Both the position numbers and the translations under genes were made by a program. From NCBI GenBank assembly GCA_002378195.1, contig DFRJ01000002.1:129054-193053 (forward strand): 64,000 nucleotides of DNA, in the 5' to 3' direction. Every line of letters starts with the position of its first letter. Position 1 is the stretch's first letter. The stretch is from Patescibacteria group bacterium UBA3466. GTDB lineage: Bacteria; Patescibacteriota; Minisyncoccia; Phycocordibacterales; UBA918. Positions 24,865 to 39,690 of the stretch are shown here, in pieces. The notes under the pieces were generated by a model. That model was not told the DNA's origin, did not search any database, and was given only the letters and a program-made list of their open reading frames with translations.

Positions 24865-24869
24865 CTATC

Positions 24870-25418
24870 ATGTACCTCAAGACGTTTAAGCAAGTTCTGG
24901 CAAAATCCGTCTATGCGGGACTGTTTCTAGCGGTGAGTTTTTTTGTGCTGTCGATTGCCATCTTGTTGCCACACATCGGACTGTTAAAAACCTTATGGCA
25001 GTACGAATCAGTGTCGTTACTCGAAATCGGGTTGATGACTGTGAATCTCTACGGTTCACTAGGAACAAATTTTTCGTTTCTGTCAGCAACATACACGATA
25101 CTCATTGCCGTATTATTTGGTCTACAAGTAACTCTTCTCACCTATTACGTCAGGAGTATACGGAGCAAAATAACCAATCTCACCAGCGTAGGTGCTAGTA
25201 GTATCGGCGGCCTCGTTAGTGGATTTTTCGGCATTGGTTGTGCCGCTTGTGGAACTTTCTTACTGTCTTCAATTCTTGTTTTGTTTGGTGCAGGTGGCTT
25301 ACTCGCTTGGCTACCCTTTGGTGGAGAAGAGTTCGGTTTGCTTGGTGTGGGGCTGCTCTTGTATGCCAATCACATCGTCGTAAAGAAAATAAATGCACCA
25401 CTAGTGTGTGCATCGTAA
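24870..25418 (+). CDS. Polytopic membrane protein with intramembrane CxxC (GIGCAACGTF)
   Basis: 4-5 TM helices; CAAC within a helix; directly downstream of the DsbA-like gene, so possibly its redox partner. Confidence 0.4.
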   Translation: MYLKTFKQVLAKSVYAGLFLAVSFFVLSIAILLPHIGLLKTLWQYESVSLLEIGLMTVNLYGSLGTNFSFLSATYTILIAVLFGLQVTLLTYYVRSIRSKITNLTSVGASSIGGLVSGFFGIGCAACGTFLLSSILVLFGAGGLLAWLPFGGEEFGLLGVGLLLYANHIVVKKINAPLVCAS

Positions 25419-25445
25419 TCAAAATTTATTCTTAAGTAATTAAAC

Positions 25446-25979
25446 ATGAAACCATTAATAATTATTGTTGGTCTATCAGTACTCCTTCTCGTAGGTGGTT
25501 CGTGGTGGTCAAACAACGCACAACAGAAAGTATACGAACAAGAAATTGTCGGTATTACATCTACTATTGTGACAGATCGTAGCCATGTACAGACTGAAGT
25601 AGACTACAAAGACACTCCTCCGGTTGGTGGGAATCATCATCCTGTCTGGTTGAGCTGTAATGGCGACATCTACGATGAGCCAGTGGTAGATGAAAATGCG
25701 GTTCATTCACTTGAGCATGGTGCCGTCTGGATTACCTATCAGCCAGAACTTGCTGCCGAACAAATTGAAATTCTCAAAGGTAAAGTGAAAGGATACTCTT
25801 TCATGAGTCCGTACCCAGAACAAGAGTCACCAATTATGCTCACAGCGTGGGGTGTACAACTTCCACTTGATGCAGCTGATGATCCTCGGATAGATCAGTT
25901 TCTAGCAAAATTCCGCCAAGGACCACAAACGCCTGAGCCGGGTGCAACCTGTAATGCCATTCCGGGAGGAATGCAGTAA
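25446..25979 (+). CDS. DUF3105-family secreted/anchored protein
   Basis: N-terminal anchor; GGNHHPVW...HSLEHGAVWITYQP pattern typical of DUF3105. Confidence 0.55.
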   Translation: MKPLIIIVGLSVLLLVGGSWWSNNAQQKVYEQEIVGITSTIVTDRSHVQTEVDYKDTPPVGGNHHPVWLSCNGDIYDEPVVDENAVHSLEHGAVWITYQPELAAEQIEILKGKVKGYSFMSPYPEQESPIMLTAWGVQLPLDAADDPRIDQFLAKFRQGPQTPEPGATCNAIPGGMQ

Positions 25980-25987
25980 ACTGAACT

Positions 25988-26611
25988 ATGAATTATCAAG
26001 CTATTAAAAGACAGTTGCCAGCCCTCCTTATCGGGATTGTTGTTGGTGTTGGAATGTTCTTGCTCGGTCAGAATTCTATTCCACTCGATAAACCAAATGA
26101 GGCAGAGATTGGTTTTGCACAGGACATGAGTGTTCACCATCAACAAGCAATCGAAATGTCATTTCTTGTTCGAGAAAAAACCGATGATCAAGAGATTCGC
26201 GGTTTTGCCTTTGACATCATTAACACCCAAGCCAACCAGCGTGGCATGATGCTTGGTTGGCTGGATTTGTGGCAACAGCCACTCTCAACCACTAAAACGC
26301 CAATGATGTGGATGATGGATGATATGTCTTCTATGGATCACAGTCAGATGACAAAAGACTTTACCTCTGGAGCATACATGCCCGGCATGGCAACCAGTGA
26401 CGAAATGCAGACACTTGTTGAAGCGAGCGGAACAGACGCTGAGCAGTTATTTCTCGAGCTGATGATTCGCCATCATAAAGGCGGTGTCATGATGGCAGAC
26501 GGGGTTATAAAGCGCAGTGAGAATGAAACAGTCACTCGCTTGGCGCAAACCATGGTCAACGGTCAACAGGCAGAGATTGATTACATGAATGAGTTATTAA
26601 CAAACTACTAA
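25988..26611 (+). CDS. DUF305-family metal-binding protein
   Basis: Two His-rich helical repeats (MSVHHQQAIEMS; MIRHHKGGVMMA). Confidence 0.6.
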   Translation: MNYQAIKRQLPALLIGIVVGVGMFLLGQNSIPLDKPNEAEIGFAQDMSVHHQQAIEMSFLVREKTDDQEIRGFAFDIINTQANQRGMMLGWLDLWQQPLSTTKTPMMWMMDDMSSMDHSQMTKDFTSGAYMPGMATSDEMQTLVEASGTDAEQLFLELMIRHHKGGVMMADGVIKRSENETVTRLAQTMVNGQQAEIDYMNELLTNY

Positions 26612-26620
26612 AGAAATAAT

Positions 26621-27280
26621 ATGGAAGAAACACAAATAAGCGAAGATCCTGTTAAACATAACGAGATAGAAACTCCTGCTACAGCAGTAAAGATTCAACA
26701 AAAACCACTGCTAATGTACGGTGCAGTTGTTTTAGTTGTCGTCTTGATACTAGGTGCACTTTTATACTCGCAAGGAATTATTGTGGCAGCCAAAGTAAAT
26801 GGCGAGTCCATTAGTCGTCTTAGCGTTCTTAGTGAATTAGAAGATCAAGCTGGAGCAGCGGTACTTGATTCTCTTATCTCAGATATCCTGATTGAACAAG
26901 CTGCGACTGAAGCGGGTGTTACTGTAACTGATGCTGATGTGGTAACAGAGATAGCGGCCATCGAATCACAAATTTCTGGACAGGGTGGAACTCTCGAGGA
27001 TGTGTTGGCGCAACAGGGATTAACCCGAGAAAGTCTCACGAAGCAAATCAGAACACAAAAGATGTTAGAGACGTTATTGGCCTCAGACATTACGGTCACT
27101 GAGGAAGAAGTTAACGCGTTTATTGAAGCCAATGGACCCTTACCAGAAGGGCAAGAAGAAGCACTGCGTCCGCAGATAGAAGAACAAATCAAAAGTCAGA
27201 AATTTAGCACTGCTGCACAAAGCTACATTACCGGTTTACGCACACAGGCAAACATTCAGTACTTCGTAGACTATGAATAG
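26621..27280 (+). CDS. SurA N-terminal-domain-like periplasmic chaperone-type protein
   Basis: N-terminal TM then helical domain resembling the SurA/PpiD N-domain; no PPIase catalytic domain. Confidence 0.35.
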   Translation: MEETQISEDPVKHNEIETPATAVKIQQKPLLMYGAVVLVVVLILGALLYSQGIIVAAKVNGESISRLSVLSELEDQAGAAVLDSLISDILIEQAATEAGVTVTDADVVTEIAAIESQISGQGGTLEDVLAQQGLTRESLTKQIRTQKMLETLLASDITVTEEEVNAFIEANGPLPEGQEEALRPQIEEQIKSQKFSTAAQSYITGLRTQANIQYFVDYE

Positions 27281-28535
27281 TATGAAATATATTTTATTTA
27301 GCTTACTGGTGTTTTCTTTGCTCGGCGGCTTGTTTGCAACCATACACAACTCAGAAGTAACCACTGTTACCTATAAACGTGATACTCCTAGTGCCACGAC
27401 AGAAGTGGTCACCCAAATAGCTGAACCAGAAGAAGCAGTTGAGGAACCAGTTGTATCGACCTCAAACCAAGTAAAAGAAATTGAAATTCAGCCTGGCGAT
27501 ACCTTCTCTACCATTATGGAAGAAGTAGCTGTTACCGCTGAAGATCAGAGTTCAATTCTCGCTGCTGTTCAAGATGTCTATGACTTCACCAAACTGCAAG
27601 CTGGCAAACTGATACACGTTGTCTTTGCACAGGACGCATTAGCATCGGTTGACTATGACTTGAATGACGACAAGAAGATTGTAATTGAAAATGTTGACGG
27701 TGAATTTGTAGCCAAAGAAGAAGCGATTGAGTATGACGTTACTGAAGTGGTACGCAGTGCCACAATTGAGTCTTCGTTATTCTACGACGGTGCAAGTGCT
27801 GGCTTGTCCGACAAGACTCTGGTTGAACTAGCCGAAATCTTTCAGTGGGACATAGACTTCAGTACTGACATCCAGATTGACGACTCGTTTGTTGTTTTGT
27901 ATGAAGAGCGAAAAACAAAAGATGGTGAAGAAGCCAGTGCCGGAAAAATTCTCGCTGCTCAGTTCACTAATCAAGGCGAGACGTACGAGGCGTACTACTT
28001 TGAAACATCAACTAGTACAGGTGGTTACTACGCTGCCAACGGTGAGAGTGTTGAACGCCAGTTCTTAAGCTCACCAATTGGAGTTGGGTACGTGAGTTCA
28101 GGTTTCAGTTATAGCCGACTGAATCCAATTACCAAACGTGTGACACCACACCGAGCTATCGACTACGCTGCTCCACACGGTACGCCAATCGTGGCTATTG
28201 CGGACGGCGAAGTTACTTTGTCAGGAAACAGAGGTCCACTTGGTATTGCCATTGATATCGAACACGGACAGTACATGAGCCAGTACGCTCACATGTCTAG
28301 TATCGACTCTGCGGTGAAGAAAAATCCTGAAGTGAAACAAGGACAGGTTATCGGATACGTTGGTTCAACTGGTCAATCAACTGGTCCTCACTTGCACTAC
28401 ACACTCTTTAAAGATGGAAACCCTATCAATCCAGCTGACATTGATATGCCAGTCGGTGAATTACTCACCGAAACAGAGCTTGATGACTTTCAGGTCGTTG
28501 CTGACGGCTATAAGATTCAATTGGGTGTAAATTAA
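27273..28535 (+). CDS. M23-family peptidoglycan endopeptidase
   Basis: C-terminal LytM domain motifs (HRAIDYAAPHGTPI; GSTGQSTGPHLHYTLF); N-terminal anchor. Confidence 0.75.
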   Translation: MNSMKYILFSLLVFSLLGGLFATIHNSEVTTVTYKRDTPSATTEVVTQIAEPEEAVEEPVVSTSNQVKEIEIQPGDTFSTIMEEVAVTAEDQSSILAAVQDVYDFTKLQAGKLIHVVFAQDALASVDYDLNDDKKIVIENVDGEFVAKEEAIEYDVTEVVRSATIESSLFYDGASAGLSDKTLVELAEIFQWDIDFSTDIQIDDSFVVLYEERKTKDGEEASAGKILAAQFTNQGETYEAYYFETSTSTGGYYAANGESVERQFLSSPIGVGYVSSGFSYSRLNPITKRVTPHRAIDYAAPHGTPIVAIADGEVTLSGNRGPLGIAIDIEHGQYMSQYAHMSSIDSAVKKNPEVKQGQVIGYVGSTGQSTGPHLHYTLFKDGNPINPADIDMPVGELLTETELDDFQVVADGYKIQLGVN

Positions 28536-28549
28536 TCTAATTTATTAGT

Positions 28550-30505
28550 ATGACTGAAAAACATAACAACAATGCAGCTGTCTGTGATGACTGTGGAGCT
28601 GGGGACGAGACTACTCCTGCTACCGGCCTACGATCACTCTTCTCTCGCAGTGGTGCACTTAAAATGCTTACGCCTATTTCGGGAATGTTGCTTGTTTTGG
28701 CGTTTTTGAGTTCATACTCGCTACCACAACCGCAGTTTGCCACGTTGTTCTATATCCTTTCAATTGCGACCGGTTCAGTCTTTGTGGTGCAAAGTGCAGT
28801 GCGTGGACTTATTAAACAGCGTTTTCTCAACATCAGCTTTTTGGTGGTTATCGCTTCGCTTGGAGCCTTGTACATCGGTGAGTACGCTGAGGCAGCGGCG
28901 GTGGTATTTCTCTTTGCCTTAGCGGAACTCTTTGAAAGTTACGGCGTTGAACGCTCACGGCGAGCAGTAGCAGCATTGATTAAAAAATCACCCAAAGTAG
29001 CTCGAATGGTAGATGGTACTACTATGCCGGTTGAGAAAGTGGTTGTTGGAACCATTGTTGCTGTAAAGCCTGGAGAGCAGATTCCGTTAGATGGTGTGGT
29101 TGTCAAAGGTGAGTCGACCATTGATGAGGCGTCCATTACAGGCGAATCTATTCCAGTTGATAAAACTATTGATGATCAAGTGTTTGCCAGCACTATGAAT
29201 GTGCAAGGGTATCTTGAGATTAGGGTTGAGAAAGCTAGCCAAGACTCAACGTTTGCTCGGATTATTACTCTCATCGAAGAAGCTCAAGCATCGCGGGCAC
29301 CTACTCAGGCGTTCATCGACAAGTTTGCCCGCTACTACACGCCAGCCGTTGTCATATTGTCAATTTTAATTGCGGTGATACCAACCTTAGTCTTTGGTCT
29401 GCCGTTTGAAGATTGGCTCTATCGAGCGCTGATTCTCTTAGTGATTGCTTGCCCGTGTGCATTGGTGATTGCTACACCAGTGGCGATTGCTTCAGCGATT
29501 GGCGGTGCGTCACGTAGTGGCATTCTGATAAAGGGTGGAAAGTATCTTGAAAAATTAGCTAGCGTTAAAGTGGTGGCGTTTGATAAGACTCGTACCCTCA
29601 CTTATGGCACCCATACTGTTACTGATGTCATTGCTTTTGGTTCGCATAGTAAAGAAAAGGTCATTGCCGATGCTGCGGGTATTGAATTATTTTCTTCGCA
29701 TCCACTGGCTGAAGCAATTATTGCGTACGCAAAAGAACAGAGTATCGAGCCACATAAAATGGACTCCTATGAGAACGTGGCTGGCAAGGGTGGACGAGCG
29801 CAATGCTTGGTGTGTGAAGCCGACAGTTATATCGGTAACAGAAAACTACTGACCGAAAGCGGTATCGACAGTACGGCATTTGAAGCAGACGTAGAGCGCT
29901 TAGAAAAAGAAGGTAAAACGGTGGTGTTGGTAGCTGAAGGTAAGGAAGTAATTGGAGCGCTCGCGATTTCCGATCAAGTTCGTGAAGAAGCATCAGAAGT
30001 AATTGATGTACTCAGAAGAAGGGGTGTTGAGAGCGCAATGCTTACTGGTGACAACGAGCATAGTGCAGCCTACGTTGCTAATCTGATTGGTATAAATGAC
30101 GTTAAAGCCTCATTACTGCCTGAAGAAAAAGTAACCAGCGTGAAAGAACTAAGAGACAAGTATCACTCAGTGGCGATGGTTGGTGATGGAGTAAATGACG
30201 CTCCATCACTCGTTACATCAGACGTGGGGTTTGCTATTGGTGCTGGTGGTACCGATGCTGCTATAGAATCAGCTGACATAACTCTGTTATCTGGAGACTT
30301 ACGGACTATCCCACAGTCAATCAAACTAGCTCGCGCTACGGTTAAAACTATTCGAACAAACATTATTCTCGCACTTGGTATAAAAATCCTCTTCCTCATT
30401 CTCGTGCCGTTTGGTTTAACTAACCTGGTGTTCGCCATTGCCGCTGATTCAGGTATGGCTATTGTCGTAATTCTTAACAGTCTGAGACTCTTTGCGGTTA
30501 AATAA
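28550..30505 (+). CDS. zntA: P1B-type heavy-metal (Zn/Cd/Pb-type) translocating ATPase
   Basis: N-terminal CDDC metal site; CPC in TM6 (IACPCALVIATP); GDGVNDAP hinge; HP motif (SSHPLAEA). The phosphorylation loop reads DKTRTLT rather than canonical DKTGT. Confidence 0.85.
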   Translation: MTEKHNNNAAVCDDCGAGDETTPATGLRSLFSRSGALKMLTPISGMLLVLAFLSSYSLPQPQFATLFYILSIATGSVFVVQSAVRGLIKQRFLNISFLVVIASLGALYIGEYAEAAAVVFLFALAELFESYGVERSRRAVAALIKKSPKVARMVDGTTMPVEKVVVGTIVAVKPGEQIPLDGVVVKGESTIDEASITGESIPVDKTIDDQVFASTMNVQGYLEIRVEKASQDSTFARIITLIEEAQASRAPTQAFIDKFARYYTPAVVILSILIAVIPTLVFGLPFEDWLYRALILLVIACPCALVIATPVAIASAIGGASRSGILIKGGKYLEKLASVKVVAFDKTRTLTYGTHTVTDVIAFGSHSKEKVIADAAGIELFSSHPLAEAIIAYAKEQSIEPHKMDSYENVAGKGGRAQCLVCEADSYIGNRKLLTESGIDSTAFEADVERLEKEGKTVVLVAEGKEVIGALAISDQVREEASEVIDVLRRRGVESAMLTGDNEHSAAYVANLIGINDVKASLLPEEKVTSVKELRDKYHSVAMVGDGVNDAPSLVTSDVGFAIGAGGTDAAIESADITLLSGDLRTIPQSIKLARATVKTIRTNIILALGIKILFLILVPFGLTNLVFAIAADSGMAIVVILNSLRLFAVK

Positions 30506-30507
30506 AT

Positions 30508-30966
30508 ATGGATGAAGTAATAGTATTCTTAGCTAGTAAATTACATGTAGCTATTGTTGTTATTGCAATCATTACATTCCTGCTCTCCACCAAGAAGCAA
30601 AGAATGGCACTTGCTCTAACTGCAATGACGGCATTACCACTATCGTATCTACTAGGAAAAATAGCGAGTTTCTTCTATTACACCGAGCGACCGTTTTCTG
30701 AACTTGGTATCGCTTCACTTGTACCACACATTGCTGATAATGGTTTTCCTTCAGAACATACACTCTATGCGATGGTGATTGCGGCTGCAGTATTCTCGAT
30801 ACGCAAAAACTGGGGTCTACTGCTCATTGCCCTCGCTATCCTAGTTGGAGTAGGTCGTGTTCTTGCTTATGTACATAATCCAATTGATATTGTCGGCTCT
30901 GTATTCATAGCAAGCATTGCTGTCTTTAGTTCAGTTTATGTATTGCACCGAATCAATGTGCAATAA
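30508..30966 (+). CDS. PAP2-superfamily membrane phosphatase
   Basis: KxxxxxxRP-like (YYTERPF), PSEH and GRxxxxxHxxxD (GRVLAYVHNPID) motifs. Confidence 0.6.
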   Translation: MDEVIVFLASKLHVAIVVIAIITFLLSTKKQRMALALTAMTALPLSYLLGKIASFFYYTERPFSELGIASLVPHIADNGFPSEHTLYAMVIAAAVFSIRKNWGLLLIALAILVGVGRVLAYVHNPIDIVGSVFIASIAVFSSVYVLHRINVQ

Positions 30967-30993
30967 GAAATTGAGTTATCTAACGATTGCACA

Positions 30994-31012
30994 TGAGACC
31001 CCCTGGGGGTAT
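30994..31012. promoter_or_regulatory. Putative CsoR operator (G/C-tract inverted repeat)
   Basis: aGACCCCCtGGGGGTaT immediately upstream of the csoR start. Confidence 0.45.
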
Positions 31013-31021
31013 ACTGACAAT

Positions 31022-31291
31022 GTGAAAAAAGAATTAAAATCAAAAATCGAACGACAACTAAAAGTGATTGAGGGTCAAGTGCGAGGTTTGCAAAAAATGG
31101 TGACAGAAGACAAATACTGCGTTGATATAATTACGCAAACTTCGGCTATTCGAAACTCACTTAGTTCAGTTGAAGAAAAAATGCTTGAAAGTCATCTTGA
31201 TACTTGCGTGGCAACGCAGATGAAGGGAAAAAATAAAAATAAAGCCATCGCTGAAGTTTTGTCAGTCTATAAACTGGCAAAACGAAAATAA
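31022..31291 (+). CDS. csoR: CsoR/RcnR-family copper-sensing repressor (ORF track 30917..31291; GTG 31022 preferred)
   Basis: Cys...His-x3-Cys ligand pattern (YCVDIITQ...ESHLDTC); ~90-aa all-helical. The longer ORF would overlap the PAP2 gene. Confidence 0.7.
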   Translation: MKKELKSKIERQLKVIEGQVRGLQKMVTEDKYCVDIITQTSAIRNSLSSVEEKMLESHLDTCVATQMKGKNKNKAIAEVLSVYKLAKRK

Positions 31292-31292
31292 T

Positions 31293-32459
31293 ATGAAACA
31301 GACCCACTCATACCTGATGTTAGGAGTTTGTCTAACTCTACTACTCGTAGTATTTGCTGGTATATACACAAGTGCAACTCAAGAGAAGTCGTATGACGCA
31401 AATACTGTTAGTGGAGATGTGCTTACGTCCCGTGCAACGTTAATTGTGCAGCCACAATCTGATGCTGACACAGTGCTGGTCGATCGTGTAACTCTTACTG
31501 AGGGAGGGTTCCTTGCTGTGAGGGCTATTGACGACAATCGCCTCGGACAAATTGTTGAAATAAGTGAATACCTCGCACCTGGTACGCATAATAACTTATC
31601 GATCCCGCTTGGCGAATTCTATGATGGTGGCGAAGAGCTTATTGTCATGATGTATGAAGACGCTGGTAATGACAAAATCTTTAACGATCTGGATCAGCCA
31701 TATGAGGAGGACGGAATTCCCATTGCAGTCTATGTAGCAACTGGCGAAAAAGTCCCGGAATTTATAGTAACCAACACTAGTACTCCTGAGGGGATTTCGC
31801 TCATGGATATGGGAACCATGGAATTTATCAGCTACACCGACTCAGGCTTCGAGCCAAAAGACGTGACGATATCCCTTGGCACGATGGTTCATTTTGTGAA
31901 CGAAAGTTCAGTTGATATGTGGGTGGCTTCAGATGATCATCCGGCTCACACTGACTTGCCAACCTTTGATCAGTTTAAGGGTAGCGGTCCTGGTGAACAG
32001 TACGTCTACATATTTGACCAGGTTGGTGAATGGAAGTATCACGATCATCTTAATCCACCGGCGGTGGGAACCATACTTGTTACTGAGGCTGCTGATACTG
32101 AAGTAAAGCTTCCGACTTCCAAAAATGATTCAGGATATTACAGTATTGACAGCGATAATTTTTCTCAGTTGGTTGACGACCCAGAGGTGACAACCGTAAA
32201 TGTACACATTCCTTACGGCGGAGAAATCGCCGGCACCGAGGCCTTTGTTCCATACAATGATACCCAGGCGCTGCTGGCAGCTTTGCCGAGTGATACAACT
32301 GCACCAGTAGCTCTCTACTGTCGAAGTGGCAGCATGAGTGCAATTGCAGCTAAAGCTGTAGTCGCTGCTGGATATACCAGTGTATATGATTTAACTGGTG
32401 GTATGAATGCGTACCGGGTTAGTGGTCGTGACGTACTGGTAAAAGAACAAAATAACTAA
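31293..32459 (+). CDS. Secreted/anchored protein with cupredoxin-like middle domain and C-terminal rhodanese domain
   Basis: N-terminal TM; EWKYHDHLNPPAVGTILV resembles a cupredoxin C-terminal strand but without Cys/Met; rhodanese loop YCRSGSMS with catalytic Cys. Confidence 0.55.
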   Translation: MKQTHSYLMLGVCLTLLLVVFAGIYTSATQEKSYDANTVSGDVLTSRATLIVQPQSDADTVLVDRVTLTEGGFLAVRAIDDNRLGQIVEISEYLAPGTHNNLSIPLGEFYDGGEELIVMMYEDAGNDKIFNDLDQPYEEDGIPIAVYVATGEKVPEFIVTNTSTPEGISLMDMGTMEFISYTDSGFEPKDVTISLGTMVHFVNESSVDMWVASDDHPAHTDLPTFDQFKGSGPGEQYVYIFDQVGEWKYHDHLNPPAVGTILVTEAADTEVKLPTSKNDSGYYSIDSDNFSQLVDDPEVTTVNVHIPYGGEIAGTEAFVPYNDTQALLAALPSDTTAPVALYCRSGSMSAIAAKAVVAAGYTSVYDLTGGMNAYRVSGRDVLVKEQNN

Positions 32460-32465
32460 TCACGT

Positions 32466-33179
32466 ATGTTACTAGGAATTAAAAGTACCAAAGTAGCTTT
32501 ACTTCGCCATCTAGGCGTGGCAATAGTCGGTGGGCTACTTATTTATCTTGTCTGGTCACTCAATAGCACCTGGAGTCCTGATATGAGACTCTGGAAGGCT
32601 TTTGGTGGCGCTTCGTTCTTCTTGCTGTGGTTTGCAATATTCATTGGACCCGCAGCTAAGTTACTACCCGCCCTTAATGTGGTGCTTTCGTATCGACGTG
32701 AAGCTGGAGTCTGGTTTTTCTTAATTGCGCTCGTTCATGGCTATCTCATCCTCGATGGATGGGTGCGGTGGAGCGTTTGGGAGTTTTTCGGCTATCAATA
32801 CATTGCAGAGATTGATACCTACTTGCGAGTAGAGTCTGGTTTTGGCCTCGCCAACCTCTTGGGCTTTGTTGCCTTAACGTTTGCTCTAGCACTCGCAGCT
32901 ACTTCATTCGATAAAGCGGTAAATTGGCTTGGTATACAGTCATGGAAATGGCTGCACGGATTTGCGTACGTTGTTTTCTATCTCGGCGCAATACATGTCG
33001 TCTATTTTGCCTTTATCCATTACACTCCATCGCTTACAAGAGCTATGCAGGGTCTGCAAACCAACTATCCTGACAATCCACTCAAGTATTACTACCTGTT
33101 TATGCTCCTCAGTGTACTAGTGGTTCAGATACTTGCTTTCATCCAGACGGTCCGTCGTAATCGCAATACAAGTTGGTAA
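32466..33179 (+). CDS. Ferric-reductase-like transmembrane domain protein (haem-binding 6-TM)
   Basis: Six TM helices with paired conserved His on alternate helices (LVHGY..., IHVVYFAFIHY). Confidence 0.5.
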   Translation: MLLGIKSTKVALLRHLGVAIVGGLLIYLVWSLNSTWSPDMRLWKAFGGASFFLLWFAIFIGPAAKLLPALNVVLSYRREAGVWFFLIALVHGYLILDGWVRWSVWEFFGYQYIAEIDTYLRVESGFGLANLLGFVALTFALALAATSFDKAVNWLGIQSWKWLHGFAYVVFYLGAIHVVYFAFIHYTPSLTRAMQGLQTNYPDNPLKYYYLFMLLSVLVVQILAFIQTVRRNRNTSW

Positions 33180-33864
33180 CTGTATGGTATTTGAAACGCA
33201 CATCACGGCTCATAAAGAAGTAGCTAAGGGTACTCACGAAGTGACACTCGGGCGTCCAACGTCATTTGTCTTCAAGGCGGGACAGTATACCCAAGTGGCT
33301 GTCCCAAAATTGACACACTCTGATCCGAAAGGCCGATCGAGACAATTCTCAATCGCCTCTTCGCCATACGACATGGACGAGATCAAGGTTGTCTTTAGAA
33401 ACTCAGGTAGTGGCTTCAAGGAGACACTCCTACACACGTCAATTGGTGCTTCGGTGCAGATTGAACAAGCGGCGGGCAGTTTTCTCTTACCTCAAAAGGT
33501 TACCCGACCGCAGGTGTTTGTAGCTGGTGGTGTCGGGATTGCTCCGTTAATGAGTTACTTGCACCAAAGGATAGATGATGTGTGGGAACAACCCGTCACA
33601 TTACTCTACGGTAATCAAAACCCTGAGAGCGCTGCATATTTAGGAGAATTACAACAGATGAGCAAGCAACACCGTCAATTTTCCCTAGACAACATCTACA
33701 AGCGACCCACTCCCGGACTCTTTGCAAAGTTGGCTGAAAAGCATCAGGTTGCAGTGTGGTGGGTAGTTGGCCCACCTGGCATGGTGTCTGTGACGGTTAA
33801 CGGTTTACATCTGGGAGGAATTTCGGCAGACAAGATTATGACTGAATCGTTTGATGGATATTAG
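33133..33864 (+). CDS. FNR-like FAD/NAD(P)-binding oxidoreductase domain protein (probable start ATG ~33184, MVFETHI...)
   Basis: RQFSIASSP (RxYS FAD motif); GGVGIAPLMS NAD(P)-binding glycine motif. Immediately follows the ferric-reductase TM gene, so a split NOX/FRE-type reductase. Confidence 0.65.
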   Translation: MLSSRRSVVIAIQVGNCMVFETHITAHKEVAKGTHEVTLGRPTSFVFKAGQYTQVAVPKLTHSDPKGRSRQFSIASSPYDMDEIKVVFRNSGSGFKETLLHTSIGASVQIEQAAGSFLLPQKVTRPQVFVAGGVGIAPLMSYLHQRIDDVWEQPVTLLYGNQNPESAAYLGELQQMSKQHRQFSLDNIYKRPTPGLFAKLAEKHQVAVWWVVGPPGMVSVTVNGLHLGGISADKIMTESFDGY

Positions 33865-33905
33865 CAGAAAGTATTAAATGTAAATTAATAACGTAATAAA
33901 TCTGT

Positions 33906-34373
33906 ATGGAATCATTATTTCCCCTAGGTATAGAACAATATCTCGTTGGTGGACTACTGGTTGGTTTAGGTATTTCTTTTGTCTATATTATGACCGGCTT
34001 AGTCTCAGGTGTTTCGACTGCCTTTACATCAACGTGGTCCTTTTTTTCACGAGATACAACATCTTTTTTCAGACGAGAAAAATTTCTCTCTTCACGAACC
34101 TGGCGTCTTTCTTTGGTCACTGGCTTGATGCTTGGTGGTCTTGTATATCTTGTTTTTATCAACGGAGGTGAATCGACAGTTGCTTCACTTTCAATGACCA
34201 GACTGTTCTTTGGAGGGCTGTTGGTGGGGATAGGTACCCGCATGGCGGCAGGTTGTCCGTCTGGTCACGGTATATGTGGCAACGCTATGCTTGAGAAGAC
34301 CTCGTTCATCTCTACTGTCACATTTTTATCAGTTGGTATTGTTGTTGCTTTGTTAACGCAATCAATTTTCTAA
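33906..34373 (+). CDS. YeeE/YedE (DUF395) sulfur-compound transporter half
   Basis: 4-TM half-transporter with conserved Cys motif (GCPSGHGICG). Confidence 0.6.
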   Translation: MESLFPLGIEQYLVGGLLVGLGISFVYIMTGLVSGVSTAFTSTWSFFSRDTTSFFRREKFLSSRTWRLSLVTGLMLGGLVYLVFINGGESTVASLSMTRLFFGGLLVGIGTRMAAGCPSGHGICGNAMLEKTSFISTVTFLSVGIVVALLTQSIF

Positions 34374-34378
34374 AACTT

Positions 34379-34816
34379 ATGCATATGAATACTAAAAAAC
34401 ACATTGCAATCATCCTCGGAGGAACACTGTTTGGTTTTGGTTTGGCTTATTCAGGAGCAGCTGTGCCAGAAATCGTATTGTCCTTTTTGAGGCTTGAAGA
34501 CTTTGGCTTAGTGTTGGTAATTGGTGGCGCGCTTCTAGTGACACTGATTACATTCCAGCTGATACCAAAATTATTGTCGAAACCTTTGCTGAACGGAACA
34601 TTTGCCACTTCGTCTCGACTGTCAGTATCAAAATGGAATGTTATTGGTGCGGCAGTCTTTGGTGCCGGCTGGGGTATCTCAGGTCTTTGTCCAGGGACCT
34701 CATTCGCAGCCATTGGTATGGGTAACTGGCCGATACTTATTGGTATTATCGGTATGTTTATCGGAGCGTATGTATACGGAACACTTCGCAATAAAGGATT
34801 GACTGGAATTGAATAA
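34379..34816 (+). CDS. YeeE/YedE (DUF395) sulfur-compound transporter half
   Basis: Second 4-TM half with GLCPGTSF motif; adjacent to the first half. Confidence 0.6.
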   Translation: MHMNTKKHIAIILGGTLFGFGLAYSGAAVPEIVLSFLRLEDFGLVLVIGGALLVTLITFQLIPKLLSKPLLNGTFATSSRLSVSKWNVIGAAVFGAGWGISGLCPGTSFAAIGMGNWPILIGIIGMFIGAYVYGTLRNKGLTGIE

Positions 34817-36824
34817 CATGGAACATAAACATACAGACAATCATTGTCATAGTCATGGCAGCCCGGGTATGGGACACGGGTCAGCAGGTACATTTCTAAA
34901 GCGGTTTTGGATCGTCACGTTTCTTTTGATTCCGCTTGTCTTTGCTAATGAGATGGTCATGAATGCACTTGGTCTTGATGCATATACTCTTAGCAAATGG
35001 ATAGGTTTTGGTATCGCCACTATTATTTTCGGTTTCGCACTCATTTTCTTTGAGCACGCACTACATGAAATAAAGGCCCGAGCTTATGGCATGATGACTT
35101 TGGTTTCTATTGCGGTTGCAGCTGGATATTTGTTTTCAGTGGCAGCGACTTTTTTACCGTCACTTGAAGCTGATTTTTATTTGGAAATATCAACCTTGAT
35201 TTGGGTGCTTCTATTTGGTCACTACTTAGAAGCAAAATCTGGTGCCGCAGCCGGTGACTCGTTGGCCGAAGTGGCTAAGCTTTTGCCGAAGCAAGCTCAT
35301 AAGTTAATCAATGGTGTAGAAACTGATGTCGACATCAGTGATTTAGCTGATGGGGATTTGGTTCTTGTTAAACCTGGTGAGAAAATACCAGCTGACGGGA
35401 TGATCATAGAAGGTTCAGCCAACGTTGATGAGGCACTGATCAGCGGTGAGTCAACTCCAGTACAGAAAAAAGCTAAAGATGAGGTGGTGGCAGGGTCAAT
35501 TTGTCTTGACGGTTCACTTACTATCTCACTTACAAGAGTTGGTGAACATTCAACTATTGGTCAAATTCAAAATCTCATTGCTACTGCACAGCAAACCAAA
35601 CCTAAGTCGCAACGACTGGCTGATAAAGCAGCGGGTATTCTTACGTTTGTAGCTGGTATTACTGCACTACTCACACTGCTTATTTGGACATTTGTGATTG
35701 GTCAACCATTTGTATTCGGGGCAACACTGGCAATCACAGTGCTGGTGATTGCGTGTCCACACGCACTAGGATTAGCTATTCCAACGGTCACTACCATCAC
35801 TACTTCGTTGGCGGTGAAAAATGGATTCTTTATTAAGAACCTTGCTAAGCTTGAAGTTATTAAAAAAGCTGACTACGTAGTTTTTGATAAAACCGGCACA
35901 TTAACTACAGGAGTATTTGGGGTTACTGATTTAGTGGCTGTGGGAGATGTTGCGGAAGATGAGGTGTTACGAATCGCTGCTTCACTTGAACAACATTCTT
36001 CTCACATTATTGGTGAATCAATTGTATCTCACGCTAAGGAACAGTCAGTTACAATGTCTGATATTTCAGCCTTTAAGAATGTTGCTGGTAAAGGCATTGT
36101 TGCTGAGATTGATGGTAAGAAATATGTGGCTGGTAACCGAGCCTTGATTGAATTCTTGGATATTTCGTTCACTAAAGCTGAATCTCCATATAATGAATTG
36201 ATATCGAACGGCAAAACTACAATCTTTGTTGCTGATGAATCAACCGTGATTGGTCTAGTGGCTCTGTCTGACGCTATCAAGCCTGAGTCTTATGAAGCAG
36301 TAAAACGTTTGCATGAGCTTGATGTGAAGGTGGCTATGTTGACTGGTGACAATACGCAGGTGGCACAAAGTGTGGCAAAAGAACTTAATATCGACACGTT
36401 TTTTGCTGAGGTTTTGCCCGAAGACAAGTACGCTCATATTAAGGAATTACAGGAATCAGGATCAGTAATCTTGATGGTTGGTGATGGAGTCAACGATGCG
36501 CCTGCCCTAACGCAGGCAGATGCTGGGATTGCTATTGGAGCAGGAACTGATGTGGCGGTTGAGGCGGGAGATGTTGTCTTAACTCGAAACAATCCCGAGG
36601 ATATTGTTCGACTTATTACGCTTTCACGAAAAGTGTATATAAAAATGATACAAAACCTTGTGTGGGCACTTGGGTATAACGTGATTGCTATCCCAGCCGC
36701 TGCCGGTGTGTTTGCCAGCCTCGGTTTCTTTTTACGGCCTGAGATTGGAGCATTTGTAATGAGTCTCTCAACGGTGATTGTGGTCGCTAATGCGATGTTG
36801 CTGAAGCGTATAGATTTAACGTAA
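34809..36824 (+). CDS. copB: CopB-type (P1B-3) copper-exporting ATPase with His-rich N-terminus
   Basis: N-terminal HKHTDNHCHSHGSPGMGHG; CPH in TM6 (IACPHALGLAIP); DKTGTLT; GDGVNDAP. Confidence 0.85.
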   Translation: MNNMEHKHTDNHCHSHGSPGMGHGSAGTFLKRFWIVTFLLIPLVFANEMVMNALGLDAYTLSKWIGFGIATIIFGFALIFFEHALHEIKARAYGMMTLVSIAVAAGYLFSVAATFLPSLEADFYLEISTLIWVLLFGHYLEAKSGAAAGDSLAEVAKLLPKQAHKLINGVETDVDISDLADGDLVLVKPGEKIPADGMIIEGSANVDEALISGESTPVQKKAKDEVVAGSICLDGSLTISLTRVGEHSTIGQIQNLIATAQQTKPKSQRLADKAAGILTFVAGITALLTLLIWTFVIGQPFVFGATLAITVLVIACPHALGLAIPTVTTITTSLAVKNGFFIKNLAKLEVIKKADYVVFDKTGTLTTGVFGVTDLVAVGDVAEDEVLRIAASLEQHSSHIIGESIVSHAKEQSVTMSDISAFKNVAGKGIVAEIDGKKYVAGNRALIEFLDISFTKAESPYNELISNGKTTIFVADESTVIGLVALSDAIKPESYEAVKRLHELDVKVAMLTGDNTQVAQSVAKELNIDTFFAEVLPEDKYAHIKELQESGSVILMVGDGVNDAPALTQADAGIAIGAGTDVAVEAGDVVLTRNNPEDIVRLITLSRKVYIKMIQNLVWALGYNVIAIPAAAGVFASLGFFLRPEIGAFVMSLSTVIVVANAMLLKRIDLT

Positions 36825-36851
36825 GTCAAATAGTATAATCGATACATCCAT

Positions 36852-37247
36852 ATGGGACAAAAATTGGGTACATCAATAGTGACGCTACTATTTCTTGGAG
36901 CTATGTTCGGGGGTCTTTTTCACATGGCGGGAATGGAAATGAGTGGTGGGATGACTGACTGTCCATACATGTCTCAACAAGAAACAATTTGTGCTATGAG
37001 CGTGTCTGAGCACTTGGGTGCCTGGCAGTCCACTTTTACATCTATCGCACCAACTCTGTTTACAATCCTAGGGCTGCTGTTTGTAGCTGTCGCAGTAGCT
37101 CAAATTGCACCGAATTTATTACGGAAAGTTAGACTAGCGTTAATCCGTTTATCGAGCACACAGTCAAGCAGTCGTGATTTCAATTTTGTAGCCAGACCGC
37201 TACAAGAACTATTCTCTAGCGGCATCCTACACCCCAAACTCTTCTAG
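36852..37247 (+). CDS. Small Met/Cys-rich membrane-associated protein (possible Cu-binding)
   Basis: HMAGMEMSGGMTDCPYMSQQETICAMS Met-rich cluster; hydrophobic segments. Confidence 0.4.
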   Translation: MGQKLGTSIVTLLFLGAMFGGLFHMAGMEMSGGMTDCPYMSQQETICAMSVSEHLGAWQSTFTSIAPTLFTILGLLFVAVAVAQIAPNLLRKVRLALIRLSSTQSSSRDFNFVARPLQELFSSGILHPKLF

Positions 37248-37295
37248 CTAATAAAAACAGCAGAGCATTCTGCATTTATTAGCTTAGAAATATGT

Positions 37296-37955
37296 ATGAA
37301 TAAAAAATTAATCCTTGGAGCAATACTGTTTGTTCCAACAGTATCGTTCGCGCACGATAGCGAACATGTAACGACAGCGTGGTATCAAAATCCATTAGTG
37401 CTCACGTTAACTGTTTTAACAGTTATTGCTCTTGGCACACTCTGCTACGGGTGGGTATCGAAAAGAAAAAACTTACAGATAGTACCTGCAGTGGCTCTCG
37501 TAGTAATCGCTGTCACCAGTTTCGCTATGTTTAGCCAACCAGTTGATACTTATGAACCAGAATTAGCAATGGCTGATTTTGGCACTGGCCAAACAGTCAC
37601 GTTGTATAAAAGTCCAAATTGTGGCTGCTGTAGTGGTCACGCTAAAGCACTCGAAGAAGCAGGCTTTGCTGTTAACATAGTTGAAACAGACGAGCTTGAT
37701 CAAATTAAAAGTGAACAAAATATTCCACCTACAGGCGCAAGTTGTCACACGTCAGTCATTGGTGACTATGTAGTTGAAGGTCATGTTCCCTTGGAGGCAA
37801 TTGAGAAATTACTGACTGAAAAACCCGATGTGGCCGGTATTGGACTACCAGGAATGCCTATCGGAACGCCTGGAATGCCAGGCAGGAAAACAGCACCCTA
37901 CGAGGTATATCAGCTATCGGAAGACGGGCAAATGTCACCGTACATGACAATCTAA
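37296..37955 (+). CDS. DUF411-family periplasmic copper-binding protein
   Basis: Signal peptide; CxCC motif (SPNCGCCSGH); C-terminal Met/Pro segment (GLPGMPIGTPGMPG). Confidence 0.7.
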   Translation: MNKKLILGAILFVPTVSFAHDSEHVTTAWYQNPLVLTLTVLTVIALGTLCYGWVSKRKNLQIVPAVALVVIAVTSFAMFSQPVDTYEPELAMADFGTGQTVTLYKSPNCGCCSGHAKALEEAGFAVNIVETDELDQIKSEQNIPPTGASCHTSVIGDYVVEGHVPLEAIEKLLTEKPDVAGIGLPGMPIGTPGMPGRKTAPYEVYQLSEDGQMSPYMTI

Positions 37956-37974
37956 TAACAAAAGTAAATAAAAT

Positions 37975-39690
37975 ATGAAATATATAAGCATTGCAGTACT
38001 CGCTCTCGTTCTGATTGGAGGAGGAGCGTGGTACTACACAAATAACATGCATTCCATGATGAATATGGACGGCATGATGATGGGACAAGAAATCCCTGAA
38101 AAAGAAAACTTATCAATCCTACATGACTCAGATGTTCCAGAGGTAAAACCAACAGAAGTCGTTGAGCTCAAGGATGGCGACACTTTTGACCTCACTGCTT
38201 CAATCGTGAAGCAGAAAGTTGGCAATCGAGAAGTAAAACGACTGGCATATAACGGTCAAATTCCTGGACCAATTCTTAAAGTGGAAAAGGGTTCAGAGGT
38301 GACCGTGAACTTCACGAATAACATCGATATGGAAACGTCGCTCCACTCACACGGTTTGCGAGGAGACTGGCAGATGGATGGTGCAGTGCCGATCACTCCA
38401 CCAGTAGAAATTGGCGAGACGTTTAGCTATCAACTCGAATTTCCTGACACTGGGGTCTTCTGGTATCACCCGCATGTTCGTGAGGACTACCAGCAAGACA
38501 TGGGCCTCTATGGCAACATGATTGTTGAAGAAGATGGATATTGGAACGAAGTAGACCAAGAGGAGTATCTCATCATTGATGATCTTCTTGAAGACGGTGA
38601 ATATAATCGTGCAATGGTCACTAATACACTGATGGGTCGTTTTGGTGACACTTTGCTCATTAATGATACAGAAGACTACGAACTCACGGTCAATCAAGGA
38701 GAAATTACTCGTGCGTTTATCACTAATGTAGCGAATACTAGAACCTTTGAGCTTGAATTTGAAGGAGCTGAGATGAAGCTAGTTGGTGGTGACTTAGGGC
38801 GTATTGAGCAGGAGGAAATGATTGAACATCAAATCATCGCTCCAGCGGAACGATACATCATTGAACTCTACTATGATACTCCAGGCACATACGCCATTGA
38901 CCACCGTGGTGAATCAATCGGAACAGTGACTGTGCAGCCGTCAGGTACAAACCAACAAGCTGAATTCTCGCAATTGCGGTCAAATGCTGGTGATTATGCA
39001 GAACTTCGAGCAAACACGTCAGCGTTGCTAGCAAAAGCACCAGACAAGAATCTTCGACTTGATATCGAAATGAAAGGTATGGGTGGTATGCAAATGATGC
39101 AGCAGATGATGGGAGGAGATTCTGACGGTGAAACCGTAAACCTTATGGGGATGGAAATGAACCGTGAGCAAGCTATTGAGCATTGTCAGATGATGCCAGG
39201 TATGGCTGGCTGCGAACCGTTCCTAAACGCTGAAGAAGAGTCAGATAGCATGGGAGGGATGGTGATGGGAGGAGATGAAGAACATAGTGAAGATGGAATT
39301 GAATGGGAAGATGATATGGCTATGATGAACAATATGAGTAACGACGAGATGATGGAATGGGTCATTGAAGACACTGATACTGGTGCTAAGAATGACGAGA
39401 TCGACTGGTCGTTTGAGACTGGTGATTTGGTGAAGGTGCGTGTATACAATGATGAAAATGGCATGCACCCAATGCAACACCCACTCCACTTCCACGGACA
39501 ACGTTTTGTTGTGTTGGCTACTGACGATGAACTTAACGAAAACATGCAGTGGAAAGATACTGTGTTGATTCCTAAGGGACAGACAGTAGATCTACTGGTC
39601 GACATGAGCAACCCAGGTAAATGGATGGCGCATTGTCACATTGCTGAACACCTGCACTCAGGGATGATGTTTAACTTTGAAGTGAAATAG
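37975..39690 (+). CDS. Multicopper oxidase (CueO/CopA-like) with Met-rich insertion
   Basis: Four Cu-site motifs (HSHG, WYHPH, HPLHFHG, HCHIAEHLHSGMM); long Met-rich insert (MGGMQMMQQMMGG...MMPGMAGC...MAMMNNMSNDEMMEW). Confidence 0.85.
   Translation: MKYISIAVLALVLIGGGAWYYTNNMHSMMNMDGMMMGQEIPEKENLSILHDSDVPEVKPTEVVELKDGDTFDLTASIVKQKVGNREVKRLAYNGQIPGPILKVEKGSEVTVNFTNNIDMETSLHSHGLRGDWQMDGAVPITPPVEIGETFSYQLEFPDTGVFWYHPHVREDYQQDMGLYGNMIVEEDGYWNEVDQEEYLIIDDLLEDGEYNRAMVTNTLMGRFGDTLLINDTEDYELTVNQGEITRAFITNVANTRTFELEFEGAEMKLVGGDLGRIEQEEMIEHQIIAPAERYIIELYYDTPGTYAIDHRGESIGTVTVQPSGTNQQAEFSQLRSNAGDYAELRANTSALLAKAPDKNLRLDIEMKGMGGMQMMQQMMGGDSDGETVNLMGMEMNREQAIEHCQMMPGMAGCEPFLNAEEESDSMGGMVMGGDEEHSEDGIEWEDDMAMMNNMSNDEMMEWVIEDTDTGAKNDEIDWSFETGDLVKVRVYNDENGMHPMQHPLHFHGQRFVVLATDDELNENMQWKDTVLIPKGQTVDLLVDMSNPGKWMAHCHIAEHLHSGMMFNFEVK

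Follow-up and report, generated by a model that had tools for sequence, protein, structure and literature searches.

Why do genes for a putative surface protein, an electron-transfer pair and a split sulfur-compound channel lie inside what appears to be a copper operon, between its repressor and its copper ATPase? This question is raised by positions 31293-34816 of a 64,000-nucleotide (nt) stretch of contig DFRJ01000002.1 from the Patescibacteria group bacterium UBA3466, an uncultured, ultra-small marine member of Paceibacteria (the whole stretch is called the window below). Five genes, P1, P2, P3, YeeA, and YeeB, occupy these positions and belong to a run of + strand genes that extends without interruption from 24106 to 39690. 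We found that in the copper islands of Patescibacteria, P1-P2-P3 forms a conserved unit whose arrangement is not due to chance, and that YeeA and YeeB (YeeAB) are a lineage-specific recruit that stands before metal exporters, outside the conserved reductase unit. Tentatively, and with somewhat less than even confidence, we read the system as a copper-induced, NAD(P)H-driven reductase chain that would run to P1 at the cell surface, with an optional sulfur branch. The argument starts from what was observed directly, namely the gene content, the conservation of cofactor residues, the synteny, and the operator- and promoter-like arrangement. The features concerned are as follows (aa, amino acids).

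30988..31015, + strand: promoter-like site (TGCACA, 16 nt, TATACT) enclosing the palindrome ACCCCCTGGGGGT at 30998-31010; from a promoter scan and the sequence, a consensus match only
31022..31291, + strand: csoR, Cu(I)-type CsoR repressor by sequence, 89 aa, GTG start (PF02583, 83.5 bits; best NCBIfam match RicR)
31293..32459, + strand: P1, 388 aa, three-domain protein, predicted to be surface-anchored (PF23951, cupredoxin fold, PF00581)
P1 residues 5-27, + strand: transmembrane anchor, a single hydrophobic segment
P1 residues 53-145 (nt 31449-31727), + strand: DUF7282 (PF23951, 69 bits, cut-off 27)
P1 residues 175-265 (nt 31815-32087), + strand: Cys-less cupredoxin fold (Foldseek)
P1 residues ~281-388 (nt 32133-32456), + strand: rhodanese domain (PF00581, 32.1 bits, cut-off 22.2), active-site C343 in CRSGSMS
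32466..33179, + strand: P2, 237 aa, putative YedZ/MsrQ-type flavocytochrome, a ferric-reductase-domain membrane protein with a predicted single outer haem (PF01794 Ferric_reduct, 30.8, cut-off 28)
33184..33864, + strand: P3, 226 aa, FNR-family flavin reductase, Fre-like (PF00175 NAD_binding_1, 43.8, cut-off 22)
33906..34373, + strand: YeeA, half of a putative split YeeE/YedE-family sulfur-compound channel (PF04143, 34.4, cut-off 27)
34379..34816, + strand: YeeB, the second half, DUF6691 (PF20398, 62.3, cut-off 27; PF04143 only 24 against 27)
34818..36824, + strand: P1B-type copper ATPase, CopB-like, with a CPH motif and a His-rich N-terminus MEHKHTDNHCHSHGSPGMGHGS (TIGR01511, 551.9 bits)
36852-37247, + strand: 131-aa Met/Cys-rich membrane protein, with the stretch MAGMEMSGGMTDCPYMSQQETICAMS
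37296-37955, + strand: DUF411/CopG-like protein
37975-39690, + strand: multicopper oxidase (MCO)

The csoR start is most plausibly the GTG at 31022, which yields 89 aa and matches homologue lengths. P3 most likely begins at the ATG at 33184, giving the 226 aa found in all homologues, and the overlapping TTG at 33133 is an unlikely start. Every domain that a first-pass annotation, made from the letters of the sequence, had named in the five genes was confirmed.

P1-type genes are components of copper islands. We collected 49 species-level loci anchored on the N-terminal half of P1 (DUF7282 and cupredoxin) and scored their neighbours by tblastn. The close homologues all belong to Patescibacteria (Paceibacteria and relatives), for the most part marine ones, and at least three further marine assemblies carry the island in near-identical form. 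CsoR was found in 28/49 P1 loci, a P-type ATPase in 31/49, a multicopper oxidase in 20/49, and a DsbA-like gene in 38/49. A ferric-reductase-domain (FRD) gene and an FNR gene, the counterparts of P2 and P3, are both present in 18 of the 49 loci; in 13 of these 18, the start of the FRD gene is at most ~20 nt away from where the P1 match ends, both lie on one strand, and the FNR gene comes directly next. This strict P1-FRD-FNR order thus spans 13 species-level loci at 36-75% P1 identity, and in relatives the P1-P2-P3 order recurs at 43-77% identity over the N-terminal region of P1. A different electron-transfer system, a fusion of NqrB/RnfD with FNR, is found in eight of the 49 (with ApbE detected in 6), so that one system or the other is present in 22/49. 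The rhodanese domain is fused to P1 in just three of the loci, and YeeA/YeeB in none (0/49). The neighbourhood that the first-pass annotation had drawn is therefore conserved as far as P1-P2-P3 goes, but not for the YeeE halves. The order of the rest of the operon, 131-aa protein, DUF411, and MCO, is also seen in four related loci (L001, L010, L093, and L096).

The five genes sit close to their copper neighbours. The ten genes from csoR to the multicopper oxidase gene are co-oriented, and the gaps between them are 1, 6, 4, 41, 5, ~1, 27, 48, and 19 nt. A terminator scan, used only to show that the gaps of the sub-cluster are free of terminator-like sites, found none between its genes, where all matches were intragenic; the sole intergenic candidate is a weak 5-bp stem at 37260-37273, between the genes for the 131-aa protein and DUF411. 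The sub-cluster had been described at first pass as embedded in a copper operon, and the short gaps (1-48 nt), the lack of a terminator-like site between its genes, and the CsoR-type palindrome upstream bear this out; the picture of a separate operon with its own terminator and promoter was not what we found in this window.

Alignment of the repressor showed residues C33, H58, and C62 together with Y32 and E78, which we take to be the equivalents, at a constant offset of -3, of C36/H61/C65/Y35/E81 in M. tuberculosis CsoR. The PF02583 match, the C-H-C ligand set, and the Tyr/Glu second shell point to a Cu(I)-sensing CsoR. CstR, the persulfide-sensing paralogue of CsoR, is recognised by two Cys and the absence of the His ligand; the window protein has His58, and the His-less form occurs instead in a related locus, L095. 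The palindrome ACCCCCTGGGGGT lies 22 nt past the stop codon of the preceding PAP2 gene, between the hexamers TGCACA and TATACT, and is the only perfect copy within the 64-kb window. We read it, by consensus match only, as a putative CsoR operator; in more than 15 related loci, csoR is likewise preceded, at a distance of 12-25 nt, by a similar G/C-tract palindrome. In the window, 6 nt separate the end of the -10 hexamer from the csoR GTG, so either the transcript is leaderless or the true promoter differs. Because of the CsoR ligand set, the palindrome that overlaps the promoter-like site, and the equivalent palindromes before csoR in relatives, the sub-cluster sits in a ten-gene operon that is very probably derepressed by copper. 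In its CsoR ligands and second shell, its G/C-tract palindrome over a promoter-like site, and its downstream P1B ATPase, this operon resembles csoR-copZA of Firmicutes and the RicR regulon; unlike them, it has five extra genes between the repressor and the ATPase and no CopZ-like chaperone.

The first-pass annotation had seen in P2 and P3 a split pair, a haem membrane gene adjacent to an FAD/NAD gene, and this held: both families were recognised (PF01794, PF00175) and the pair is kept beside P1 in relatives. It had also likened the haem domain to ferric/cupric reductases, and while the family stands, the protein looks more exactly YedZ/MsrQ-type (three His and Arg-Arg) and not like the four-His NOX/FRE type. 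R77, R78, H91, H164, and H177 of P2 are invariant in 23 sequences, E. coli MsrQ included, where they align with R77, R78, H91, H151, and H164. In MsrQ, R77 and R78 are essential for FMN binding, H91 and H164 ligate the single outer haem, and H151 stacks on the flavin (PMC12525009). An Arg in place of the first canonical haem His is the signature of YedZ/STEAP, and STEAP is also a single-haem protein (PMC3591440). P2 passes the PF01794 cut-off (30.8 against 28) and has the three His and the Arg-for-His exchange; its best NCBIfam match is the MsrQ equivalog NF003831, at 32.6 against a cut-off of 130. It differs from NOX and full ferric reductases in having three conserved His, with Arg at the fourth position, and a dehydrogenase encoded by a separate gene. 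Since the cofactor residues are conserved and Arg replaces the first haem His, P2 is by its sequence MsrQ-type, not NOX-type.

P3 has the marks of an FNR/Fre-like protein, with its PF00175 match, RQFS (in RQFSIAS), and GGVGIAP, and it has no transmembrane segment and no Cys. Its matches in the PDB include the SpNOX dehydrogenase domain (8qq5, 8qq1) and E. coli Fre (1qfj); against the Fre equivalog NF005963 it scored 64.1 bits, with a cut-off of 230. The haem and reductase genes are adjacent in every locus examined, including L099, which is without copper genes.

These two proteins invite comparison with E. coli MsrQ and Fre. P2 shares the FMN Arg pair, both haem ligands, and the flavin-stacking His, and P3 is an FNR protein of the size of Fre; in both, electrons would go from NAD(P)H to a flavin, then to one haem on the outer side, and from there to a partner outside the cytoplasm (PMC12525009). 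MsrQ can be reduced by Fre in vitro, and the in vivo donor (quinol or Fre) is disputed (PMC12525009). In contrast to MsrPQ, no MsrP is encoded with P2, whose neighbour is a Cys-less cupredoxin/DUF7282 protein, and a CsoR-type operator lies ahead of the unit; a tblastn search with E. coli MsrP gave no match at E<=1 in the window or in the related loci collected to that stage. In the E. coli K-12 stretch examined, msrQ lies beside msrP with no adjacent fre, whereas in the window the reductase gene adjoins the haem gene. STEAP, yeast Fre1/Fre2, plant FRO, and SpNOX belong to the same superfamily and pass NAD(P)H electrons across the membrane to Fe(III), Cu(II), or O2. They have a fused dehydrogenase and haem domain, reduce the metal at the haem face, and serve metal uptake and not resistance; the window has separate genes and a conserved surface protein alongside.

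Related to these are the MsrQ-like and NQR/RNF-like extracytosolic systems of Meheust et al. 2021 (PMC8238504), which have PF01794 plus PF00175 and a proposed NAD(P)H donor in common with P2-P3. In contrast to them, the window operon has no ApbE or FMN-binding gene among the detected families, and the role proposed for them is iron assimilation; the words copper, cupredoxin, and rhodanese are absent from PMC8238504. The same work describes an NQR/RNF-like system that carries electrons from NAD(P)H to the outside, with NqrB/RnfD-NqrF fusions and ApbE, mainly in Actinobacteria and the candidate phyla radiation (PMC8238504). In the copper islands related to that of the window, a 502-aa NqrB/RnfD-like membrane domain is fused to FNR and accompanied by ApbE (L010:11115-14407, L007:14058-16439), and with it goes a ~300-aa protein without family match whose two G-[GQ]-A-T motifs resemble flavinylation sites. 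This system sometimes replaces and sometimes accompanies the FRD-FNR pair.

P2 also stands out in its degree of conservation. It is 96% identical between the window (32466-33179) and L001 (L001:11171-11884), and the flanks are at 64-86% (DUF411 64%, DsbA-like 70%, N-terminal region of P1 77%, P3 85%). Homologues of P2 are all 235-240 aa long. Either an unusually strong constraint or a recent exchange would fit.

P1 was described at first pass as a cupredoxin-like domain joined to a rhodanese domain with a CRSG loop, and both domains proved to be there. The protein has one N-terminal hydrophobic segment and is therefore predicted to lie outside the cell; C343 is its only Cys outside this segment. 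For the cupredoxin fold, Foldseek gave 5fc9 as the best match (E 9.6e-8, TM-score 0.79), with plastocyanins at TM-scores of 0.73-0.79. PF13473 matches 18 of 18 members of the cupredoxin family (best E 1.4e-7), the window domain itself scoring 17.9 bits, under the gathering cut-off of 27. The remark that the copper ligands were apparently missing was right in part. HMMER alignment with 9cck and 6hbe showed that the type-1 set is incomplete, in that the Cys has become D251, the C-terminal His has become N254, and the Met is lost, but the N-terminal His (H216) is kept and a conserved His/Asp cluster is present. There is no Cys anywhere in the domain, and M209, W210, H216, H219, D226, H250, D251, and H252 are invariant or nearly so in P1 (34 homologues). 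To judge from these residues, the P1 cupredoxin is probably a remodelled metal site, His-based and type-2-like. As to the other N-terminal domain, DUF7282, its model is a confident beta-sandwich (pLDDT 93) without a significant structural neighbour, the best being C2-like beta-sandwiches (E ~0.02, TM-score ~0.4); a literature search and a profile search of PDB sequences gave no match and no credible match, respectively.

The H-D-H and H-P-x-H motifs of P1 recall the trinuclear motifs of MCOs (H-C-H, H-P-x-H-x-H). The idea was rejected: the alignment to the MCO of the window was off-register with a probability of 6%, and PF07731 was touched by just 5 of 18 family members, so the likeness is kept as a visual lead only.

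The Cys-less cupredoxin (window 31815-32087; L067-L091) belongs to a very large family. In a profile search, 9,068 representative clusters passed E<=1e-3 and 4,634 passed E<=1e-10; among these are some canonical multi-repeat cupredoxins. Most members are membrane-anchored single-domain proteins of 130-180 aa with M-W-V-A-S-x-x-H-P-x-H and W-x-Y-H-[ND]-H, the latter occurring in 116 of the 143 top new representatives.

The rhodanese domain of P1 scores 32.1 bits against 22.2, and its predicted catalytic Cys opens a six-residue loop, as expected of a rhodanese sulfurtransferase. The loop, C-R-S-G-[SGA]-M-S, is kept in 12/12 fused homologues, and the solved relatives include Sud (1qxn), the best full-length match (E 1.7e-5), and GlpE. 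Most P1 homologues are without the fusion, which occurs in 16 of 120 protein clusters. In L100, a CsoR-led cluster without P1, a transmembrane-anchored stand-alone rhodanese with the same loop lies directly upstream of FRD-FNR; this protein is the true counterpart of the P1 rhodanese domain, and the arrangement indicates that a surface rhodanese is tied to the reductase pair independently of the cupredoxin. Sud, a periplasmic polysulfide-sulfur transferase of Wolinella succinogenes, hands polysulfide sulfur to polysulfide reductase (Psr). Like Sud, the P1 domain would be a single-Cys rhodanese fold outside the cytoplasmic membrane that goes with a membrane-bound reductase; unlike the Sud system, there is no Psr-type molybdoenzyme here, and the electrons are proposed to come from NAD(P)H via a haem/flavin protein. 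Sud binds polysulfide and has a single essential Cys (PMC6378623). We regard the likeness as a lead by analogy.

Rhodaneses are a wider theme of these islands. A rhodanese gene of some type is present in ~15/49 of them, in keeping with the sulfur-transfer theme proposed at first pass, and such genes appear, from their count within the islands, to be enriched in Patescibacteria copper islands. A 95-aa signal-less rhodanese (loop CRTGxRA) lies immediately downstream of a rhodanese-less P1 in L010 (L010:8813-9100), L012-L014, and L024. It was considered as a split-off P1 domain and rejected, having no signal or anchor and a loop of the cytoplasmic type. A further type, with the loop CRSGARS, lies beside and after csoR in L054, L058, L061, and L066.

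The two YeeE/YedE halves recognised at first pass were confirmed above their cut-offs (PF04143, PF20398). In YeeA, the motif G116-C117-x-S-G-H-G is invariant in 20 homologues, so that the pore-type Cys C117 is conserved; YeeB has a single Cys, in the motif G-L-C-P-G. YeeA does not appear to be a TsuA/YeeE orthologue (17.8 bits against a cut-off of 645), and there is no unassigned coding space in the operon for a TsuB/YeeD (TusA-like) partner, as all gaps are <=48 nt. The pair shares its adjacent half-size genes and Cys motifs with TsuA/YeeE and with the yeeE-yedE operons under BigR/CstR (Serratia pmpAB, A. baumannii yeeE-yedE-pdo2) (PMC7315123). It differs from them in the lack of a persulfide dioxygenase and of a TusA/TsuB partner, in the copper-type CsoR operator, and in its place before metal exporters.

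The context of YeeAB varies among relatives. In the copper-type arrangements, which are those of the window, L001, L093 (csoR-YeeA-YeeB-ATPase-DUF411-MCO), and L094 (csoR-YeeA-YeeB-CDF-ATPase), YeeAB has a CsoR gene or palindrome before it and metal exporters directly after it. In L001 (83% P1 identity), a DUF302 gene on the opposite strand stands between the P1-P2-P3 trio and YeeAB, and YeeAB has its own CsoR-type palindrome. In L095 (60% YeeA identity), YeeAB goes with a His-less C-x-C CsoR-family regulator, a SLAC1/TehA-like protein, and a rhodanese, which by gene content is a context of sulfur-stress type. We also examined a metagenome sample of 44 loci of >=5 kb with 33-46% identity to YeeA over the matched stretch. 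YeeB followed YeeA in 40/44; in the other four, the available sequence stops at or shortly after YeeA. Neighbours in the sample were of mixed kinds, and since none of the 44 had CsoR, ATPase, P1, FRD, or MCO neighbours, the idea that split YeeE pairs are generally linked to copper was discarded. It is because no P1 locus among the 49 carries YeeAB and the distant pairs have no copper neighbours that we regard YeeAB as lineage-specific. The view of the five genes as one functional unit does not hold, given the absence of YeeAB from these loci, its own transcription unit in L001, and the rarity of the rhodanese fusion (3/49).

CsoR-family paralogues of other kinds were noticed in the same loci. 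One with C-H-H, in which the third ligand is His (L094:6707-6976), lies ahead of YeeAB, CDF, and an HMA-ATPase; a second of this type (L005:19334-19603) lies ahead of a DsbD-like membrane protein, a thioredoxin-like protein, and an ATPase. The His-less C-x-C (CstR-like) paralogue (L095:4932-5168) lies ahead of SLAC1/TehA, the rhodanese, and YeeAB. With CsoR-type, C-H-H, and C-x-C sensors all ahead of YeeAB, the pair is found under at least three sensor types.

By its sequence features, the system is an MsrQ/Fre-like variant; it is not MsrPQ (no MsrP), not NOX (three His, split), not blue copper, and not TsuA. We infer the direction of electron flow, the role of P1 as acceptor, the substrate, and the cargo of YeeAB as follows. 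Under copper stress, CsoR would release the operon. P3, a Fre-like protein in the cytoplasm, would take electrons from NAD(P)H and hand them to a flavin in P2, and P2, with an FMN site inside and one haem near the outside, would carry them across the membrane, where its outer haem would reduce the membrane-anchored P1. P1 is the likely acceptor because no MsrP was found and the FRD-FNR pair is fixed next to P1; the receiving site would be its Cys-less His/Asp metal site and, where present, the single-Cys rhodanese. The output would be reductive chemistry outside the cell during copper stress. The main candidate has STEAP and Fre1 as its model: Cu(II) bound to P1 would be reduced to Cu(I). In the second, modelled on Sud and polysulfide reductase, the electrons would go to sulfane sulfur carried by the rhodanese Cys. 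YeeAB, as a module B under CsoR-family control, would presumably move thiosulfate or a related sulfur species. Cu(II) reduction and thiosulfate or persulfide handling, both put forward at first pass, are plausible from family membership and context.

Several points weigh against this proposal. In the chain as drawn, electron transfer, metal binding, and substrate are proposals from sequence. The former Cys position of the cupredoxin is Asp in fused proteins and Asn in single-domain relatives, which makes a ligand role doubtful; the His cluster is a candidate metal site, and the geometry between the domains in the P1 model is unreliable (pTM 0.42). The FRD-FNR pair also stands alone, among housekeeping genes, in L099, and is therefore a general electron-supply module, not a copper-specific one. 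Neither reductase system is near P1 in 27/49 loci, so P1 can work without one. On the regulatory side, L003 and L005 have no detectable CsoR palindrome ahead of the P1-P2-P3 trio, and the promoter and terminator scans give consensus matches in counts not above those for shuffled sequence. In physiological terms, Cu(II) reduction at the surface would oppose the multicopper oxidase of the same operon, and its gain is doubtful in a bacterium without an outer membrane.

The same evidence bears on other explanations. P3 and P2 might feed a repair of surface proteins oxidised by copper (methionine sulfoxide, sulfenate, wrong disulfides), as MsrPQ does, with P1, the rhodanese Cys, or a nearby DsbA-like protein as the reductase. 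P2 is MsrQ-type at every cofactor residue, E. coli msrPQ is reported to be induced by copper and to repair the copper chaperone CusF (PMC9302797), and P1 loci often hold a DsbA-like gene (38/49) and a CxxC membrane protein (32/49). Yet neither MsrP nor another molybdoenzyme occurs in the window or the collected loci, P1 has no Cys outside its anchor save the optional rhodanese C343, and it shows no similarity to known sulfoxide or disulfide reductases in Pfam, NCBIfam, or Foldseek, so we hold repair to be unlikely, though worth keeping in view. Distinctly unlikely, in our judgement, is that P1 is a mere copper buffer or chaperone like CopC, CopM, or CopI, with P2-P3 serving another acceptor. 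The 27 loci without a nearby reductase system would suit this, as would the P2-P3 pair without P1 in L099 and L100 and the very common single-domain Cys-less cupredoxins of the same family in other contexts. It sits badly with the strict P1-FRD-FNR order, kept, with <=~20 nt between P1 match and FRD gene, in 13 loci whose P1 identity is 36-75%, none of which has another conserved extracytoplasmic acceptor gene beside the pair.

A cluster for sulfur-stress (CstR/BigR-type) detoxification or thiosulfate assimilation that merely adjoins copper genes, with a reductase pair unrelated to copper, would bring to mind the split yeeE-yedE pairs of BigR-regulated sulfide-detoxification operons (PMC7315123), the 60%-identical YeeA of L095 behind a His-less C-x-C regulator with SLAC1/TehA-like protein and rhodanese, and a rhodanese-MBL neighbour at one locus of the broad sample, L174. 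We consider it quite improbable, for the window CsoR has the full Cu(I) ligand set and a palindrome of the kind found upstream of related csoR genes, the genes run in one direction with those for the ATPase, DUF411, and MCO and are closely spaced with them, gaps of <=48 nt leave the operon no room for a persulfide dioxygenase, SQR, or TusA-like gene, and P1-P2-P3 recurs in copper islands without YeeAB. Very improbable is a NOX-like role, in which O2 at the surface would be reduced to superoxide or peroxide, or oxygen consumed locally, by P3 and P2, either alone or together with the P1 copper site. Here P3 matches the SpNOX dehydrogenase domain, bacterial NOX enzymes are among the members of the FRD superfamily (PMC5676040, PMC11031084), and O2 binding is conceivable in principle for a His-rich, type-2-like copper site, but P2 has the single-haem YedZ/STEAP signature and not the four His of NOX (PMC3591440), reactive oxygen beside excess copper would be harmful, and the context suggests no use for it. 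Finally, the reduction of P1-bound Cu(II) might be joined to a cleavage of rhodanese persulfide derived from thiosulfate, both driven by P3/P2, with the sulfide trapping Cu(I) at the surface as Cu2S/CuS and the YeeAB channel supplying or recycling the thiosulfate. Such copper-sulfide mineralisation, which we rate as improbable, would if true be a new kind of resistance mechanism, in organisms without a respiratory chain. As a weaker corollary of it, the adjacency of the P2 and P3 genes would be genetic evidence for NAD(P)H/Fre, and not quinol, as the physiological donor of the MsrQ family; to our knowledge, the host lineage is generally without quinones and respiratory chains.

Our preferred reading, the reductase chain to P1, would matter in several ways. 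The MsrQ family has so far been known from one job, that of feeding MsrP, and here an MsrQ-type gene is fixed beside a Fre-type gene and a different surface partner, an adjacency that makes a natural test case for the donor debate (PMC12525009) and widens the roles of the family. Models of copper resistance comprise exporters, chaperones, and oxidases, with no dedicated NAD(P)H-driven reductive branch at the surface; the presence of such a branch or a flavin-based substitute in 22/49 Patescibacteria copper islands suggests a missing extracytoplasmic step in copper handling. A very large uncharacterised family of Cys-less cupredoxins (H-P-x-H, H-[ND]-H) and a recurrent association of rhodaneses with copper are also brought to notice. 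A literature search found no description of the P1-P2-P3 trio, DUF7282, the Cys-less cupredoxin family, or the link between rhodaneses and copper islands.

The metal-resistance block of the window (20653-45355, roughly 25 kb) resembles an integrative mobile island, and because it looks mobile, the trait may spread among marine ultra-small bacteria. On its left are a truncated serine recombinase without a resolvase domain (20653-21675), a ZIP gene (21806-22624), and a CDF gene (22630-23535). On its right are a NERD protein (40843-41673, - strand), a rolling-circle Rep (42747-43604), and a full serine recombinase (43783-45321) that overlaps tRNA-Glu(ctc) (45281-45355, - strand). The G+C content falls to 0.35-0.39 at 40-44 kb, and genes for HisRS and an FAD-linked oxidase flank the island. 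A search for attachment sites showed no exact repeat of >=12 nt between the left edge of the island and the tRNA-Glu/recombinase end.

Within the island, the + strand run opens at 24106-25418 with a DsbA-like protein (CPFC), followed by a 182-aa membrane protein (Mem182) without family match that has G-C-A-A-C-G inside a predicted transmembrane helix and is the protein present in 32/49 loci. The two genes stand at the head of a recurrent block, DsbA-Mem182-[small cupredoxin]-P1-FRD-FNR, and may together make up a relay, based on thiols, for copper or redox equivalents; in L100, Mem182 is 482 aa long (GCPVCG) and has an extra Cys-rich C-terminal domain. Two small membrane proteins, at 23599-24003 and 36852-37247, are weak paralogues (BLASTP E 0.002), both ending in G-I-[IL]-H-P-K-L-[YF]. 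The former precedes the DsbA block, the latter sits between the CopB-like ATPase and DUF411, and a homologue lies before the DsbA gene in L001. The window has two P1B ATPases, one with a CPC motif and no HMA domain (28550-30505) and the CopB-like one with CPH (34818-36824); in L001 and L003, the second is swapped for a CopA type with two HMA domains.

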